A DNA stretch of 18,265 nucleotides, from the IMG/VR virus record IMGVR_UViG_2630968639_000010. One strand, written 5' to 3'. The notes below the pieces were generated by a model, which saw nothing but the letters and a program-made list of their open reading frames with translations, was not told where the DNA came from and made no database searches. The translations under genes were made by a program, and so were the position numbers. Of this stretch, positions 1 through 10,298 are shown in pieces (within the stretch, counting starts at the first letter, position 1; the number at the start of each line of letters is the position of its first letter). The stretch is from a virus. Its lineage: Duplodnaviria; Heunggongvirae; Uroviricota; Caudoviricetes.

Positions 1-156
1 TTACTCCTCAGGTTCGTAAACTGTGAAGACAGCGATCTCCGTCTGACCGGTTCGGATTCGCACCTCGCAGAGGTCTTTCCACGTTACCAGTACCGTCACT
101 ATGACGGTTAAACAGATGACGATTAGAGCGAGTAACATCGCCTTTTGCTGCTTCAT
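1..156 (-). CDS. hok: Hok/Gef-family type I toxin (small membrane peptide), 51 aa
   Basis: Translation MKQQKAMLLALIVICLTVIVTVLVTWKDLCEVRIRTGQTEIAVFTVYEPEE closely matches Hok/RelF-type toxins as I remember them. ATG at 156-154, stop at 3-1. The in-frame upstream extension in the ORF track (to 183) is not used. Confidence 0.85.
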   Translation of the reverse strand: MKQQKAMLLALIVICLTVIVTVLVTWKDLCEVRIRTGQTEIAVFTVYEPEE

Positions 157-493: not shown

Positions 494-1591
494 GTGTTAA
501 TGCTTGAGCAAACAGTAAAAAACATCAATTCACGCTTTGGCTGGCGCAACACCCGTAAGCTTCTTGGTTCATCACTGGGTGTAACGGCCCAAGGATTACC
601 CCTTTTTATTGAACGTGTAAATAGTGTAGTTCAGCATAATCCCGACCTAAAAGATAGAATCGACGATTTCTGGAAAGGTTTAATTTTTAGCGGGAATCGA
701 TTACTTTCTATTTATAGAATCACCGATGAAGACGTAGCAAAATTACAAACAATTTTCACAAATCAGAAAAAGGACAATAGCCCCTTCTCAGAAAAATACC
801 CAACTCCTTTATCCAGAGAGGAGCTGTTAGTTGCTGATACTGAGCTGCATTTTGCTGAACTACGTCAAGATATCATTCGTGATAAACAAATTGACACTGC
901 TGTTTTTTTATCCAAAGCGTATTACACTGAAGTGATAGAGCTTGACCCAACACATCTTAGCGATGCGGGTATGGAATTACGTGCTAATGGTGGAGAAATA
1001 AAATGCAAAACACGCCAAGTCACGCAATGCTTTAATACCATCATGCTAATGCCTGCAGAAAAAATATTAATTCTTACGATTGATTTATCTATCCTTCCAA
1101 GAAGTGAATCACAGCCTCAACAATACCTTGTGGCTAAATTTATAAAAAAAGAAGCTGGCGTTATTTTAAACAATCCCCTTGAGTTATTTGGTTCAATACA
1201 AGATCTTTACGAAAAAGTAGATGGCAGAATTTCTCATGTATCTTTTATCACCTCAGATGGCAATACAAGTTCTTTAAAACTCAAACCAAGTCAAAAGTGT
1301 TTGCGTCAAGATGTTTACCATCATAGTGGAGAGTCCGCAAGCCCAATATTGACAAAGTTTAAGTTGGGAAAAATTTGGGATTTACCACAAAGTTCTTCAC
1401 ATATTTTATCAGTAGAGTTAATATTACCAGGGAAAAGGACAATGCTTGATAATCCTAGAATTAGGTTGCATGAAGCAATTGCGAAGAACTGTAACAACAT
1501 TGATTCGATTATATTTATTGTTGAAAAAATATTGGATTCTGTTAAGTCCTGTGAAGAGAAAAGAAGAGCGAGATCATCAGGCCATAAATGA
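494..1591 (+). CDS. Hypothetical protein, 365 aa; first gene of the AT-rich three-gene operon; no recognisable motif
   Basis: Long ORF with AGGAAG Shine-Dalgarno 6 nt before the ATG at 494. Its stop overlaps the next start (ATGA at 1588-1591). No Walker A, HTH or nuclease signature seen. Confidence 0.7.
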   Translation: MLMLEQTVKNINSRFGWRNTRKLLGSSLGVTAQGLPLFIERVNSVVQHNPDLKDRIDDFWKGLIFSGNRLLSIYRITDEDVAKLQTIFTNQKKDNSPFSEKYPTPLSREELLVADTELHFAELRQDIIRDKQIDTAVFLSKAYYTEVIELDPTHLSDAGMELRANGGEIKCKTRQVTQCFNTIMLMPAEKILILTIDLSILPRSESQPQQYLVAKFIKKEAGVILNNPLELFGSIQDLYEKVDGRISHVSFITSDGNTSSLKLKPSQKCLRQDVYHHSGESASPILTKFKLGKIWDLPQSSSHILSVELILPGKRTMLDNPRIRLHEAIAKNCNNIDSIIFIVEKILDSVKSCEEKRRARSSGHK

Positions 1592-2016
1592 AAAAGAGTA
1601 TATATCACGACATTATCACGCAAATAGAGCAGGATTTTAATGATCCTGTTCGCAGTGTGTGTCGTGATCTTTTTCTTTTTCTGGTTAGTAAAGATGCTAA
1701 AAATATCAATCACTTTACATACAAAACCCTTATCAATGGTTTGACCTATCTAACTGATACGAAAGATGACTATATCCTGCTAATAAAAGCAACTGATTAT
1801 TTATCTAGCTATAAAGCACACCTATTGGATATGCATTTTCAATACATTGATAATTTAACGGAAGAACCAATACCAGTTGAAGATGATCTTATTTCCTATG
1901 CTTTAGACACAGGAAGTTTTTACCATCCAGAAACTGGCGAATTGGTTGATAATTTTAGCCAGTATCTTTATCCATACTTTACTCCTTCGAGTCTTTTGGA
2001 GAGTCTGCATGAGTGA
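1588..2016 (+). CDS. Hypothetical small acidic protein, 142 aa; second operon gene
   Basis: Start overlaps the stop of the previous gene. The C-terminal half has no Lys/Arg and many Asp/Glu. Confidence 0.65.
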   Translation: MKKSIYHDIITQIEQDFNDPVRSVCRDLFLFLVSKDAKNINHFTYKTLINGLTYLTDTKDDYILLIKATDYLSSYKAHLLDMHFQYIDNLTEEPIPVEDDLISYALDTGSFYHPETGELVDNFSQYLYPYFTPSSLLESLHE

Positions 2017-2650
2017 TGTAAACATCTGTACTGCAGACCTTCAATCATTAATTAGAATGGATCCTGAATTTAGGGGAATGGTTCAAAGAAAATTAGCTGC
2101 AGACAAAAATATTTTTGTAAAGCAACTCTATGAAGATTTAGACGACGCTATTCAGAATTTAGAAAATGACAAACACTTCTATCAAGATGCTAAGTGGGGA
2201 GAGGACGAGCTAACAGCGTCGATCAAAAATTTCCTGAAAGGTAGGTTTTATGATGTTGAACATGATACTCAACATGGCGGTCACGTTGATTTATTAGTCA
2301 AACATCAATTCGGAAAATTCGAATGGATCGGTGAAGCAAAATTATGGAGAGGCCCAAAATCTATTCATAATGGCTGGATTCAGCTAACCGAACGTTACGG
2401 CACGGGTACGTCACGTGACGATCATGGAGGAATTCTAATTTATATAAAGTCTGACAAATCAGCAGTAAAATTCAATGAATGGAAAGAATTTTTCTCTACG
2501 ACCGTTTCGGACGCAGAAATTGAAGCGGAAGGCTCTCCCCTCCGCTTTAAGAGTATCACAAAGCATCCAGCAACAGCACTTCCATATCATGTAAGACACA
2601 TGGGAGTATCCTTATACCATTACACTGGTAAAAAACCCGCTGACTCTTAA
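2009..2650 (+). CDS. Hypothetical protein, 213 aa, with a PD-(D/E)xK-like nuclease motif; third operon gene
   Basis: ATG at 2009 preceded by GGAGAG; overlaps the previous stop (ATGAGTGA). Motif GHVDLLV followed 15 residues later by FEWIGEAKL, with an upstream acidic helix (WGEDELTASIKNFL). The track start at 1946 is rejected as an unsupported hydrophobic extension. Confidence 0.7.
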   Translation: MSDVNICTADLQSLIRMDPEFRGMVQRKLAADKNIFVKQLYEDLDDAIQNLENDKHFYQDAKWGEDELTASIKNFLKGRFYDVEHDTQHGGHVDLLVKHQFGKFEWIGEAKLWRGPKSIHNGWIQLTERYGTGTSRDDHGGILIYIKSDKSAVKFNEWKEFFSTTVSDAEIEAEGSPLRFKSITKHPATALPYHVRHMGVSLYHYTGKKPADS

Positions 2651-3168
2651 CTGGTAATTGCTATATATCCAGTCAAAAAACCTAAGGCTTTTTGCAATCT
2701 TTTACGAATTGTTCCATCTGAACATCCTTGTTGTTTTGCAATAGCACGAAGAGATAAACCAATCACGAAATGAGCAACAATTAACTCATATTCTTGTTGC
2801 TTATATCTTTCTAACCTAAGGATACTAATGTCAATAACTCGCCCTTCATCATTGCTGCACTGACGACGTGATTTTTTACCATGAGGAACAACATTTTTAT
2901 ATTTATCAGCTATTTCCTGCCAATCAATAGAACTATTTCCAGCTACAGCCCAGGCTCCCCAACTGTCCAAAGTATCATATATATTAGCATTGCTATCTAC
3001 CTGTTTTTTATATTCTTCTTTGAAGCGCGCAAGAAGCATTCTAGCCATCGTTATTATTTCTATACTTGTAACTGATTCATAAGCATCAGGAGAAATAATT
3101 CTCCCATCACTTAATGCCCTATCACTAAGATTTGCTATTTCCAATAATCGTTCTTTAGTTATTTCCAT
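2647..3168 (-). CDS. Q-like late-gene antitermination protein
   Basis: Motifs WGAWA and KRLQKALGF resemble lambdoid Q-family antiterminators as I remember them. ATG at 3168 preceded by GGTGGAG; the track's GTG start at 3180 is less likely. Its stop overlaps the stop of the gene at 2009-2650. Confidence 0.7.
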   Translation of the reverse strand: MEITKERLLEIANLSDRALSDGRIISPDAYESVTSIEIITMARMLLARFKEEYKKQVDSNANIYDTLDSWGAWAVAGNSSIDWQEIADKYKNVVPHGKKSRRQCSNDEGRVIDISILRLERYKQQEYELIVAHFVIGLSLRAIAKQQGCSDGTIRKRLQKALGFLTGYIAITS

Positions 3169-3328
3169 TATTATCTCCACCGCCCTTTCGGGCGGCCTCC
3201 TGCTGTTCTGAGGGTGCAGAAATCCCTCAGGTTAAGGACTCTATTTTATTCACAGTGCTGAATTTAATTATTCAGATTTGGATTATGCTTTCTCTTTCAC
3301 TTCACGAAGTTCCGATTATTAATTTGGC

Positions 3329-4551: not shown

Positions 4552-5298
4552 TCACTTCGCAATTCCTGGCTGGACGACATTCGGACGCCAGCTCTCCCAG
4601 TTAAAATTCACCCATCGCCCGCCGTTCATGGTCATGCGATCCATAATCCTCTCGCCGAGCAATGTTTTCATGGCCTCATAGTTCAGGTTTGTCAGCATCC
4701 CCACGCTGCGCATCGACGCTGTCCGGCGATCAACAATCTGGTGCAGCACCACCTGCTCGTTTTTTGTCTCGCGCTGAATGCCAATTTCATCAAGAACCAG
4801 CAGCCCCACTTCGCACAGTTCCCGCAAAAATTTTTCACCTGATTGCCCGTCGTCATAGCTGGCGTGTAGAGCACTCATGACATCAGCCACGGTAACCACA
4901 ATCACTGTCTGGCCATCTTTCAGCAGGCGATTCCCGATAGCCGCCGCCAGATGGTTTTTTCCGGTACCAGGTTTTCCGCTGAACGCAAAATTTGTACACC
5001 CGGTCATCAGTTCATCAGCGATAGATTGCGCCTGGCTCAACGCGTATCGCTGACCGTCGTTCTGCACCTGGTAATTCGCAAACGAGCATGTACGGTGCAA
5101 CGGCTGGATGCCTGAGCGATTCAGAATTTTTTCCACCCGCAACTGGCGATTCAGGCGGTTGATCTCCTCGCTACGTTTCTGGCCTTCAGCAAGTTGCCAC
5201 TCTCGCCACTCTGCTACCGTTCTGAATGGGGCGGTTACATGTGGCGGGACCAGTCTGCGGATACGTTCAAGAACGCCGCCTGTCGCAATATTTTTCAT
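4552..5298 (-). CDS. ydaV: DnaC-like helicase-loader ATPase (replication protein)
   Basis: Walker [16 protein letters not shown] and Walker B LLVLDEIG in an IstB/DnaC-like arrangement. Sits immediately downstream of the O-like gene, separated by 2 nt. Confidence 0.85.
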
Positions 5299-5304
5299 GG
5301 TCAG

Positions 5305-6429
5305 TTACCCCCTGAAGCCTGGCGGGATCGCACTATCCGGTAACGAGACTGTGTTAACCTGTCGGAGTAACGTCTCAGGTCGAACACCTTTCGGCGCGAA
5401 CAAGCCCTGGTATTCATTGGCGATGCTGTGTCGAATCACCTGCTCAGGTGAAAAACCCTGCTGGCGGAATTTTTCCAGCTCCCGTATCGCCCCGTTAGCG
5501 CCCTGCTCCGTTCGAATCGGTTTTCGCAATGCCCGCCTGAACTGGACCCACTCATGCCAGAGTGTTTCCGGCAACCAATCGGGCAGAGCAACTGACAACG
5601 GGTCGAATTTTTTCTGGCGAACCGCCCCACCGATAACCAGAATTCCCTGCTCGGTGTGCCTTGCGATATCACTGCGCCGCAAGACACATATCCCGGTTTC
5701 AACAGCACCGATTTTGAGCAGTGATTTTTGTCGTGGAGAATTTCGGTCAAGTTCGATCCCACACCGGACACCGTTCCTGTCAGTCACGACGATATCAATC
5801 CGCTCTCCGCAGCCGTCTCCACGCTCTGGTACCGGATACTCACGACAGACATCCAGGCCAGCAGCCTGCAACGCCGCCACCGCAGAATTACAAAATTCTG
5901 CTGCAGTACCGCCAGACAATCTCCCCTCAAGCACTCCAGCCACAAAATCCCGAAACTCCCTTCCGGAAGGGAAGGGTTTGGGATGGGTTAGATCAGTATT
6001 TATATCTTCCTCTTCCTCTGGTAACGCTTTTTGATCCGTTTGTGTAACGCTGCCAGCGTTACCTTTTCGTTTCAGTTCGCGTATTTTTGTTACTCGCTCG
6101 TTTGTAACCGCCCGTTTTTTAGAGCTTTTCCCGTTATGGCGCTCAAAGTTAGGAAGCGACAACACACCATTAGTTTCGACCAACCATCCAACCTGAATTA
6201 ACGCATCAGCAAAACCAGCCATAAAAGTGATGCGATCTATTGCGCTTTTTGTAACGCCGCGAGCGTTACACTCCGCGTTACCGTCTATCATTTGTTGATC
6301 CGCCCATACCCAGAAGCGAATGACTTTCCCTAATGCGGCATCTGGATCAATATTCAGAATCTCAGCAAGCCTGAATATTTCCGGCTTATCCGGCGTAATC
6401 ACTTCGAGCTTTATCCAGTTTGAAGCCAT
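5305..6429 (-). CDS. Phage replication initiation protein (O-like, YdaU-like)
   Basis: 374-aa ORF directly upstream of the DnaC-like loader, with AGGTGA ribosome-binding site. The position is that of the initiator in lambdoid replication modules. Confidence 0.7.
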   Translation of the reverse strand: MASNWIKLEVITPDKPEIFRLAEILNIDPDAALGKVIRFWVWADQQMIDGNAECNARGVTKSAIDRITFMAGFADALIQVGWLVETNGVLSLPNFERHNGKSSKKRAVTNERVTKIRELKRKGNAGSVTQTDQKALPEEEEDINTDLTHPKPFPSGREFRDFVAGVLEGRLSGGTAAEFCNSAVAALQAAGLDVCREYPVPERGDGCGERIDIVVTDRNGVRCGIELDRNSPRQKSLLKIGAVETGICVLRRSDIARHTEQGILVIGGAVRQKKFDPLSVALPDWLPETLWHEWVQFRRALRKPIRTEQGANGAIRELEKFRQQGFSPEQVIRHSIANEYQGLFAPKGVRPETLLRQVNTVSLPDSAIPPGFRG

Positions 6430-6506
6430 TTGTTTTCACCTTGTAACGCTCGCAGCGTTACATTTAACTGATACCGAACAAAACAGTCCGGCACGATTAA
6501 TTTCAA

Positions 6507-6929
6507 TCAATGCACTACGACAGAATCGCCGGGCGACCCACCGCCGCTGAAATGTGCTTTCCGGTAAACTGCCTGGACTGCATCATCATGCGCATCAATT
6601 GCCGTACTCAACGCTTCCTGCGCCGCCAGTAATGCACGGCGTTCCAGGGTATCGAAGATGCAGAGTCGGTGACGCAGCTCGCGCGGAAGAATTGCCAGAA
6701 CCGCAGGGATCAGTTTCTGAATTTTTTCCCTTTGCGCTTTCGTTTCACCTTTCAACCAACGGTGATAGATATTCTGATGATTGTTCCAGTCCTTGCCTGG
6801 TACCAGGGGCAATTCGCCGCCCCCCTGGCGCAGATATTCTTCAGTAATTGCATTGGCTACCCATGCCTGCCCTTTTTCAGCGGCCAGGGCTAACAGCACT
6901 GATTCAATGTGCTCATGCCTGATTTTCAT
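6507..6929 (-). CDS. ydaT: YdaT-like protein (CII-position protein of the RacR/YdaS/YdaT module)
   Basis: 140 aa beginning MKIRHEHI; AGGAG ribosome-binding site. Overlaps the upstream Cro-like gene by 17 nt. Same position as ydaT in Rac. Confidence 0.65.
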   Translation of the reverse strand: MKIRHEHIESVLLALAAEKGQAWVANAITEEYLRQGGGELPLVPGKDWNNHQNIYHRWLKGETKAQREKIQKLIPAVLAILPRELRHRLCIFDTLERRALLAAQEALSTAIDAHDDAVQAVYRKAHFSGGGSPGDSVVVH

Positions 6930-8417: not shown

Positions 8418-8573
8418 ATGGATACTATCGATCTTGGCAACAACGAATCCCTGGTGTGTGGCGTGTTCCCCAACCAGGATGGAACGTTCACCTCCATGAC
8501 ATATACCAAAAGCAAAACGTTTAAAACCGAAGTTGGCGCGCGTCGCTGGTTGGAGAAGTACACAGTAAGCTAA
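8418..8573 (+). CDS. ydaF: YdaF-like small protein, 51 aa
   Basis: Translation MDTIDLGNNESLVCGVFPNQDGTFTSMTYTKSKTFKTEVGARRWLEKYTVS; GAGG ribosome-binding site. Below the ORF-track size cut-off when taken from its likely start. Confidence 0.6.
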   Translation: MDTIDLGNNESLVCGVFPNQDGTFTSMTYTKSKTFKTEVGARRWLEKYTVS

Positions 8574-9058
8574 CGATTAAAACGTCTGCTCCTACTGTTC
8601 CAGAATAACTTCATAAAGTGGGAGTATTTTTCGGTGACGAGATAATAAGAACAGTTTGCGCCATCACTCTGATGTTGAATGATGCCCTTCCGTTCTAATT
8701 TTTTCATAACCGGGTTACGGCAAGGAGAAGTGATAATAAGATTTCCTGTTTTAAGGAAATCTTTAAATACAGCGATTTCTTTCTCAGATAAACGAAGCAA
8801 TACTCGTTGCTCTGGTAGCAATGAATAATGTTTTTGAATATGTGCTCGCAATCTTGAGAAGGAAATGGCAACCACGAAAGAAAAGGCAAAAACTATAATC
8901 TGAAAGAGCCAGGTTATTTCAGTATAAGCATTAAATACGACAGCAAACTCTTTCGGTATCAGCCAGAGAGTGAGGCCAAAAATGATAATCGTGTACATAA
9001 GTCTTTCGAGTGGCTCTTTAGCAAAAAGTTTCAACAATGGAGTAAATACATCCAACAT
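8570..9058 (-). CDS. sieB: Superinfection exclusion protein B
   Basis: From Met at 9058 (MLDVFTPLLKLF...), hydrophobic membrane segments and a C-terminus matching SieB as I remember it. The track start at 9181 is an unsupported extension. Confidence 0.8.
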   Translation of the reverse strand: MLDVFTPLLKLFAKEPLERLMYTIIIFGLTLWLIPKEFAVVFNAYTEITWLFQIIVFAFSFVVAISFSRLRAHIQKHYSLLPEQRVLLRLSEKEIAVFKDFLKTGNLIITSPCRNPVMKKLERKGIIQHQSDGANCSYYLVTEKYSHFMKLFWNSRSRRFNR

Positions 9059-9735
9059 TTCAATAACTCTCGACTGTAAGGGTATTGAAATGTTAACACA
9101 AGCTCTCGCTGTAGGGGTATAGCCGAGACCACCGAAGCCCGGAGGTGGTGAAATAAAACCGGGCACAACACGAAGGCGCATTTCCGATATCCATAAAGAG
9201 TCGGTCTTGTCTGTTAAATATAAATGGTGGGAGTGCGCCTCCGGTTGTGAATAACGACATTGCTGTGTGTAGTCTTTGGCGGCATCGGTTTTTTCTTGAA
9301 GTTCGACTGATGCCCGCCCTTTTTAAAGTGAATTTTGTGATGCGGTGAATGCGGCTAAGCGCACGCGGAACAGTTAAAAAACTCTATATTAGTTTGGGTG
9401 GTATTTGTATCCGGTGTTAATTGTTAACTGGTTAACGTCACCTGGAGGCACCAGGCACCTCATCAACAAAGTTTATTTAATTATGCGCGAATTAACCGTT
9501 ATTCGTGTGTGGGGTTTCTACACCTGAAATCCACAGCTCTTTAATAATATGGATCGGGCTGTCACGTAAACCACAATTCGGGGTGCCGCCGAATGCCCTG
9601 ATTTATCCGCAGAACCGGATCACAGGGTCGGGATGTGATTTTTTTTGGACAAACCAAACTGGTGGCTTCCGCCGCTTGCGAGAAAACCAAATATAGACTA
9701 AATTATGACTAAGTTTAACGACAAGGCCGTACTTC

Positions 9736-9969
9736 ATGAAAATAGAAACTATCAGCTACATCAAGAAAAACGCAGCCTCACTGGACCTGGCAGAACCCAT
9801 TCTTGTCACGCAGAATGGTGTTCCTGCATACGTAATTGAATCCTATGAGCAGCAACAGGAACGCGAGAACGCTATTGCGTTACTGAAACTTCTCACTATT
9901 TCAGAAAACGACAAGTCTGAAGGTCGCGTGTTTTCAAAAGCACAGTTGCTGGATAGCTTTAACAATTAA
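9736..9969 (+). CDS. Phd/YefM-family antitoxin
   Basis: 77 aa with a Phd/YefM-like N-terminus (LVTQNGVPAYVIESYEQ); immediately upstream of a ParE/RelE-like toxin. Confidence 0.75.
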   Translation: MKIETISYIKKNAASLDLAEPILVTQNGVPAYVIESYEQQQERENAIALLKLLTISENDKSEGRVFSKAQLLDSFNN

Positions 9970-9977
9970 GGTTAACT

Positions 9978-10298
9978 ATGCAGGTTGAATACACACTTAC
10001 TGCCAGAACAAGCCTTGAGCAAATTGCCGACCATCTCCGGAGTAACGACATTGACCCACTCCCTGTAATAGAAGAAATTCTTGAACGATTTGAAACAAGA
10101 GTTACTGCATTCCCGTCCGGATGCCAGTTATGCCCGGAGTTGCTCAAACTTGGCGTGGCGAAATACAGAGAATGCAACACGCCAGAAGGTTACAGAGTGC
10201 TGTACTCTGTAGAAGGGGATGTTATCACTGCACACGCGGTTCTTTCCCAACGCCAGGATATTAAACAGTTACTGTTCAGGCGACTGATCAGAGTTTAG
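9978..10298 (+). CDS. ParE/RelE-family toxin
   Basis: 106 aa; C-terminal YRVLYSVEGDVITAHAVLSQRQD resembles the ParE/RelE fold signature. AGGT ribosome-binding site, 8 nt after the antitoxin stop. Confidence 0.75.
   Translation: MQVEYTLTARTSLEQIADHLRSNDIDPLPVIEEILERFETRVTAFPSGCQLCPELLKLGVAKYRECNTPEGYRVLYSVEGDVITAHAVLSQRQDIKQLLFRRLIRV

Follow-up and report, generated by a model that had tools for sequence, protein, structure and literature searches.

An acidic winged-helix protein as candidate adaptor between an RdgC-like fold protein and a predicted nuclease in a three-gene prophage operon

The middle gene (gene 2) of a three-gene operon in an E. coli prophage encodes, as judged by its structural model, a compact, folded and moderately acidic winged-helix protein and not a disordered acidic tail, and this protein has in our estimate about an even chance of being the adaptor or regulatory subunit that connects a sensor to a nuclease in a candidate defence module. 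In such a module, the gene 2 protein would be an obligatory component, the middle one of a three-gene cargo unit carried by prophages and genomic islands, and would act by protein-protein contacts, holding the nuclease to the sensor and controlling the timing of the nuclease. The three proteins would be produced in coupled amounts from one transcript, with gene 1 specifying an RdgC-fold DNA sensor and gene 3 the effector nuclease. The whole would serve as an anti-phage or exclusion system with a logic like that of lambda RexAB, namely an RdgC-fold sensor and an effector expressed from a prophage, and the trio is probably an anti-phage defence system not described before. Complex formation, DNA sensing and the defence role are inferred from folds, motifs, gene order, gene junctions, a gene fusion and genomic settings.

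Operon layout and reading frames

The stretch of DNA analysed (18,265 nucleotides, hereafter the window) is a Rac/lambda-like E. coli prophage with genes for an integrase, RecE/RecT, Rha, a Phd-ParE pair, SieB, a cI-like repressor, replication functions, the antiterminator Q and hokD. The three-gene operon lies on the plus strand between hokD and Q, both of which are on the minus strand (Table 1), and has a GC content of 36.7% as compared to 46.3% across the remaining window. The first position of the window coincides exactly with the stop codon of the hokD-type gene. An earlier, sequence-only reading of this DNA had proposed a small middle gene translationally coupled to both neighbours, and this is borne out, since the open reading frame of 142 codons is real and is joined to gene 1 by an ATGA overlap and to gene 3 by a ATGAGTGA overlap.

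Table 1. Features of the three-gene operon and of selected flanking genes in the window
Feature	Position	Strand	Description
hokD-type type I toxin gene	1..156	-	Divergent from the operon; RefSeq hokD at the equivalent E2348/69 position
Gene 1	500..1591	+	363 aa, pI ~8.9; RdgC-like fold protein; presumed DNA-binding or sensor subunit
ATGA overlap	1588..1591	+	Gene 1 stop TGA 1589-1591, gene 2 start ATG 1588-1590; from sequence
Gene 2	1588..2016	+	142 aa, pI 4.6; acidic winged-helix protein with C-terminal alpha/beta extension
GGAGAG Shine-Dalgarno sequence for gene 3	1998-2003	+	Inside gene 2; from sequence
ATGAGTGA overlap	2009-2016	+	Gene 3 start/gene 2 stop, 8 nt; from sequence
Gene 3	2009..2650	+	213 aa; predicted PD-(D/E)xK-type nuclease; presumed effector
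Phage antiterminator Q gene	2647..3180	-	Pfam Phage_antitermQ, E 2e-31; convergent with gene 3, 4-nt overlap
SieB superinfection-exclusion gene	8570-9181	-	Pfam E 2e-29; adjoins the immunity region
Phd/YefM antitoxin gene	9736-9969	+	77 aa; Pfam 30.1 bits, cut-off 29.8
ParE toxin gene	9978-10298	+	106 aa; E 4.5e-8

For gene 1, the alternative starts at 494 and 512 were discarded and ATG 500 was retained, while the start of gene 2 is preceded by a weak Shine-Dalgarno sequence consisting of AGG only. RefSeq annotations of gene 3, in E2348/69 and others, begin at an internal ATG at 2057, which yields a protein of 197 aa, and the ATG at 2009 yields 213 aa. The latter start was adopted because 24 homologues align from M1 and the gene calls of homologues overlap gene 2; the GGAGAG Shine-Dalgarno sequence and the conserved overlap between gene 2 and gene 3 likewise favour it. 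No internal promoter or terminator scored above chance within the operon.

Fold, composition and conservation of the gene 2 product

An AlphaFold2 model built from a 65-sequence alignment (pLDDT 93.7, pTM 0.84) is ordered throughout, with no residue below a pLDDT of 50. It displays the three-helix bundle (helices 20-32, 45-51 and 59-72) followed by a beta-hairpin wing (strands 80-86 and 95-97) that defines winged-helix domains, an assignment which agrees with structure comparison. On its N-terminal side this core has one further helix, and on its C-terminal side a helix, a strand joining the sheet and a final helix. Structural matches were obtained with winged-helix domains only (the Scc1 C-terminal domain, JetB, ORC/Cdc6, NB-ARC and BrxC), many of which are protein-docking modules. 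The recognition helix (59-72) bears D60, D61 and D70, is devoid of conserved base-contacting residues and is acidic or hydrophobic in both clades of the family. At the sequence level, gene 2 has no match in Pfam, NCBIfam, PADLOC or PDB sequences, and matches PHROG 11490, a family of unknown function. A possible metal site or catalytic triad comprising C25, H42, H113 and D16 was dismissed, since H42 and H113 are not constant across the wider alignment.

The whole protein has a pI of 4.60, with 23 Asp/Glu residues against 10 Lys/Arg and an Asp+Glu content of 16%. It had been described from the sequence as strongly acidic, with a C-terminal half free of Lys/Arg; the acidity itself stands, the qualifier is overstated for 16% Asp+Glu, and the absence of basic residues applies to the last 66 residues (77-142, with 13 Asp/Glu) and fails for the half as a whole (72-142, with 13 Asp/Glu) by a single residue, K76. 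Moreover, the Lys/Arg-free tail is specific to this lineage, as homologues carry 2-7 Lys/Arg residues in the C-terminal half. Moderate acidity is by comparison a trait of the family, with a median pI of 4.72 (range 4.33-5.83) and a net charge from -17 to -4 among 65 homologues. Acidic positions are conserved at D16 (100%), E98/D99 (91-98%) and E115/E118 (85-88%), and the columns of K67 and K76 are the only ones that are basic in both family alignments. Gene 2 is under selection, as nonsynonymous differences amount to ~0.20-0.31 per site and synonymous sites are saturated at ~0.75. Full-length homologues can be aligned from E. coli to Vibrio and beta-proteobacteria. In the protein collection used, gene 2 (142 aa) and the unrelated gene 3 (213 aa) share one 90%-identity cluster, which is the probable reason why few proteins were recovered in the first search for gene 2 homologues.

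Properties of the partner proteins

Gene 1 was modelled with a pLDDT of 96.5, and structural similarity to RdgC places its product in the RdgC/RexA/Iml3-Chl4 fold class. It is on the strength of this model presumed to be a DNA-binding sensor with an RdgC-like fold, which is also the fold of RexA, the DNA-binding exclusion protein of lambda (PMC11077077). The gene 1 family comprises at least 254 cluster representatives, none of which belongs to a named family. Neither gene 1 nor 70 of its homologues gave a Pfam hit to the RdgC family PF04381, and hhalign comparisons were negative with E. coli RdgC (probability 0.8%) and with lambda RexA (probability 0.3%).

The product of gene 3 is predicted from its conserved motifs to be a PD-(D/E)xK-type nuclease. 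Residues E65, D66, H85, G91, H92, D94, W106-I-G-E109-A-K111 and Q125 are invariant among 24 homologues, and E65, D94, E109, K111 and Q125 correspond to the PD-(D/E)xK catalytic signature. In a weak match (hhalign, E 0.015), D94, E109 and K111 align on the TDITI...DAK nuclease segment of McrC; comparison with E. coli Mrr by hhalign was negative, and nothing significant was returned by profile searches of Pfam and PDB. With PADLOC-DB 2.0, genes 1 and 2 had no hit, and gene 3 matched no validated defence family and only the candidate PDC-S54, to which 18 of the 24 family members match in the region of the motif (best E 8e-9). The PDC-S54 model describes a single gene and has ~410 positions, of which gene 3 matches only positions 295-353, and no paper describing it was found in the literature. 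Across Pfam, NCBIfam, PADLOC and PDB sequences, neither the three proteins nor their family alignments yielded a significant named family, other than PHROGs of unknown function and, for gene 3, PDC-S54. The source names of all three proteins read 'hypothetical protein', apart from one UniRef entry that labels gene 3 'Restriction endonuclease'.

Conservation of the trio and its junctions

The gene order is the same in all 14 sampled three-gene operons, down to a gene 1 identity of 19-22%, some trios accompanying gene 1 homologues of only 21-26% identity, and the sizes of the three proteins stay within 350-407, 126-151 and 209-240 aa, respectively. Such trios were found in Enterobacter, other E. 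coli prophages, Vibrio, Photobacterium, Alteromonadaceae, beta-proteobacterial metagenome contigs and a Mu-like phage contig; a genome scan restricted to one genome per species and employing a narrowed alignment returned only 3 loci. The three genes diverge at similar rates. Junctions are equally tight, with gaps of -4 to +10 between genes 1 and 2 and of -11 to +8 between genes 2 and 3, in 11 of 12 operons each, the single bigger outlier at each junction (-32 and -41) being traced to a doubtful start call. Genes 2 and 3 overlap by 4-11 nt in 9 of the 12 operons, and the 4-nt overlap of genes 1 and 2 recurs in four other loci (L002, L005, L008 and L019). With this junction geometry conserved, the fixed stoichiometry that had been read from the tight coupling can reasonably be inferred.

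The beta-proteobacterial clade has, 23 nt ahead of gene 1 and on its strand, a 155-aa HTH_3 (XRE-type) gene (L019, 3970-4437; L020, 668-1135). This gene is missing from the E. coli operon and may encode a dedicated regulator.

A two-gene variant with gene 2 fused to another upstream module

One lineage, L021, represented by at least three contigs, has two genes only (4743-6630). The first encodes a 423-aa protein whose residues 300-418 form a C-terminal gene 2 domain (hmmsearch 1e-16), and the gene 3 homologue follows directly downstream, overlapping this fusion. The N-terminal ~290 residues match neither the gene 1 profile nor Pfam, and no other gene of this locus matches gene 1. An interpretation as a fusion of gene 1 with gene 2 was ruled out on the grounds that these ~290 residues are unrelated to gene 1, and the N-terminal module may constitute an alternative sensor. 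The fusion therefore points to the winged helix as what physically connects the nuclease to an exchangeable module upstream, and the linkage is to an upstream module in general and not to gene 1 specifically. The gene 2 domain within the fusion is basic (pI 9.05), which suggests that the acidity of the free gene 2 protein is tied to contacts made in trans.

Together with the constant order and co-divergence of the genes in 14 of 14 operons, this fusion gives the adaptor the best, though indirect, support among the three roles, DNA mimic, inhibitor and adaptor, between which the sequence-only reading had left the choice.

Genomic setting and distribution

In lambdoid prophages, including those of Enterobacter and other E. 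coli, the operon adjoins Q, lying between Q and hokD or the lysis genes in a cargo slot, and is usually oriented against the late genes. At locus L025 (3241-5931), the trio comes immediately after a Phage_CI_repr gene and shares its strand. The Vibrio operon (L012) resides in an integrase-bearing island and that of Photobacterium (L014) beside helicase genes. Two lineages of the E. coli operon were present in 14 and 12 of 5426 complete genomes, and the gene 1 and gene 2 proteins are each recorded in identical form on at least 1000 contigs, with the reference EPEC strain E2348/69 among them. None of 50,697 GenBank phage records matched the operon at the DNA level, or gene 2 by tblastn. Literature searches with the RefSeq accessions, PDC-S54, RdgC-like defence proteins and lambdoid hotspots revealed no description of the operon.

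At L008 (13085-15278), the prophage region of the trio also contains a gene for an AAA_15/AAA_21 ATPase and, after it, one for an HNH nuclease, together resembling a further defence-type pair, which suggests that this region collects defence-type cargo. The window itself encodes SieB as a second exclusion function of its prophage, as well as a type II toxin-antitoxin pair on the plus strand (9736-10298), whose Phd/YefM antitoxin matches its Pfam family directly, in contrast to gene 2.

Alternative roles of gene 2

A possible but unlikely alternative is that gene 2 acts as an antitoxin-like inhibitor of the gene 3 nuclease which is freed or degraded on infection, with gene 1 as an accessory or trigger sensor; this role could coexist with that of the adaptor if the adaptor gates the nuclease as well. 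As in type II toxin-antitoxin systems, a small acidic protein is encoded immediately upstream of, and overlapping with, a nuclease gene, the 8-nt overlap with the gene 3 start providing the adjacency and co-translation with the toxin that are typical of antitoxins. The pairing of gene 2 with gene 3 also persists in the L021 lineage, where gene 1 is replaced, and no gene 3 homologue without an upstream gene 2 domain was encountered among the sampled loci. However, gene 2 does not look like a classical antitoxin: the middle protein is fully ordered in its model without a disordered, flexible toxin-binding tail, has neither the DNA-binding domain, with its conserved basic residues, that is typical of antitoxins nor a match to any antitoxin family, whereas the true Phd/ParE pair in the same window matches its Pfam families directly. 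Covalent fusion to a large protein and a basic character, as seen in L021, would be unusual for a labile antitoxin. In addition, the trio consists of three genes, with gene 1 co-inherited in every three-gene operon although a two-gene toxin-antitoxin logic has no need of it, and gene 3 is by its motifs of the PD-(D/E)xK type and not a typical RNase toxin.

Improbable in our view is a direct role in DNA binding, either as the target-recognition module of a split Mrr/DpnI-like endonuclease, composed of a winged helix and a PD-(D/E)xK domain, or as an autoregulator of the operon. The charge and conservation pattern of gene 2 make a DNA-reading winged helix unlikely, because all 65 homologues are negatively charged (-4 to -17), no column besides K67 and K76 is basic in both family alignments and both clades have an acidic or hydrophobic recognition helix. 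Furthermore, some operons, such as that of L019, have a separate HTH_3 regulator upstream.

A bolder model, to which we likewise give a small chance, envisages gene 1 as an RdgC/RexA-fold clamp that senses phage DNA or recombination and replication intermediates, with gene 2 seated on its DNA-binding surface as a DNA-competitive plug and holding the nuclease; phage DNA would displace this plug and thereby license the nuclease.

It is quite improbable that the operon serves prophage DNA metabolism, with the RdgC-like protein and the nuclease taking part in the control of recombination or replication and gene 2 being a structural subunit. RdgC does modulate RecA-dependent recombination, and many lytic phages encode RdgC-like proteins that are annotated as recombination-associated. 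Yet the lambdoid operon opposes the late genes and occupies a cargo slot, its distribution is patchy (14 and 12 of 5426 complete E. coli genomes), tblastn found it absent from the 50,697 GenBank phage records, it also occurs in non-phage islands, and its nuclease domain is common to a PADLOC defence candidate.

The least supported role for gene 2, and a highly improbable one, is that of a DNA mimic of the Ocr/ArdA type whose acidic surface would fill the DNA-binding site of a partner or foreign enzyme: like Ocr, ArdA and Ugi, gene 2 is small, acidic and carried on a mobile element, its homologues are acidic throughout (median pI 4.72) and retain acidic columns at 98-99 and 115-118, and a DNA-competitive contact is conceivable with a gene 1 fold of the DNA-binding type, but the protein is a well-ordered, ordinary winged helix of moderate acidity (16% Asp+Glu, pI 4.6, with some members of the family, which spans pI 4.3-5.8, reaching 5.8), and homologues do not share its Lys/Arg-free tail. 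The known DNA mimics clearly exceed it in acidity, and the composition of gene 2 is unlike that of the classical ones, with neither their extreme acidity nor, as judged on composition, a conserved extended array of surface carboxylates. Because the pI of gene 1 varies from 5.0 to 9.3 among homologues, there is also no consistent charge complementarity between gene 1 and gene 2. The suggestion of DNA mimicry made from the sequence hence finds no support, and the adaptor remains the preferred role.

Relation to known systems

The closest parallel to the trio, taken as a sensor-adaptor-nuclease module, is lambda RexA/RexB, since in each case a prophage encodes an RdgC-fold protein together with a separate effector, and the trio of L025 comes directly after a CI repressor gene with which it shares its strand, just as rexAB comes after cI in lambda. 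The Rex system proper consists of a RexA homologue and the membrane protein RexB; in the trio, no RexB-like gene is found and the partners of the RdgC-fold protein are, unlike in lambda, a winged-helix protein and a predicted nuclease. Gene 1 differs as well from E. coli RdgC, which acts alone, without an operon for a winged-helix protein and a nuclease. The likeness of gene 2 to the winged helices of JetB, Scc1, STAND and ORC proteins is generic, covering ~84 of 142 residues at 6-19% identity. As compared with the docking subunits of SMC and defence complexes, the trio has no SMC, kleisin or ATPase partner, and gene 2 has a C-terminal alpha/beta extension of its own.

Implications

For gene 2, a guess based on composition, that of a DNA mimic, is replaced by a defined fold, a conserved acidic patch (E98/D99 and E115/E118) and a testable role. 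Should the trio prove to be a defence system, it would extend the known sensor-adaptor-nuclease designs by a new type of sensor, one with the RdgC fold, and by a new connector subunit of small size. It would also be a soluble counterpart in which the detection of infection by RexA-like proteins could be studied, a long-standing question of the lambda Rex system, and if gene 2 indeed plugs the DNA-binding surface of gene 1, the trio would be a soluble and biochemically tractable relative in which to approach the unsolved problem of RexA sensing.
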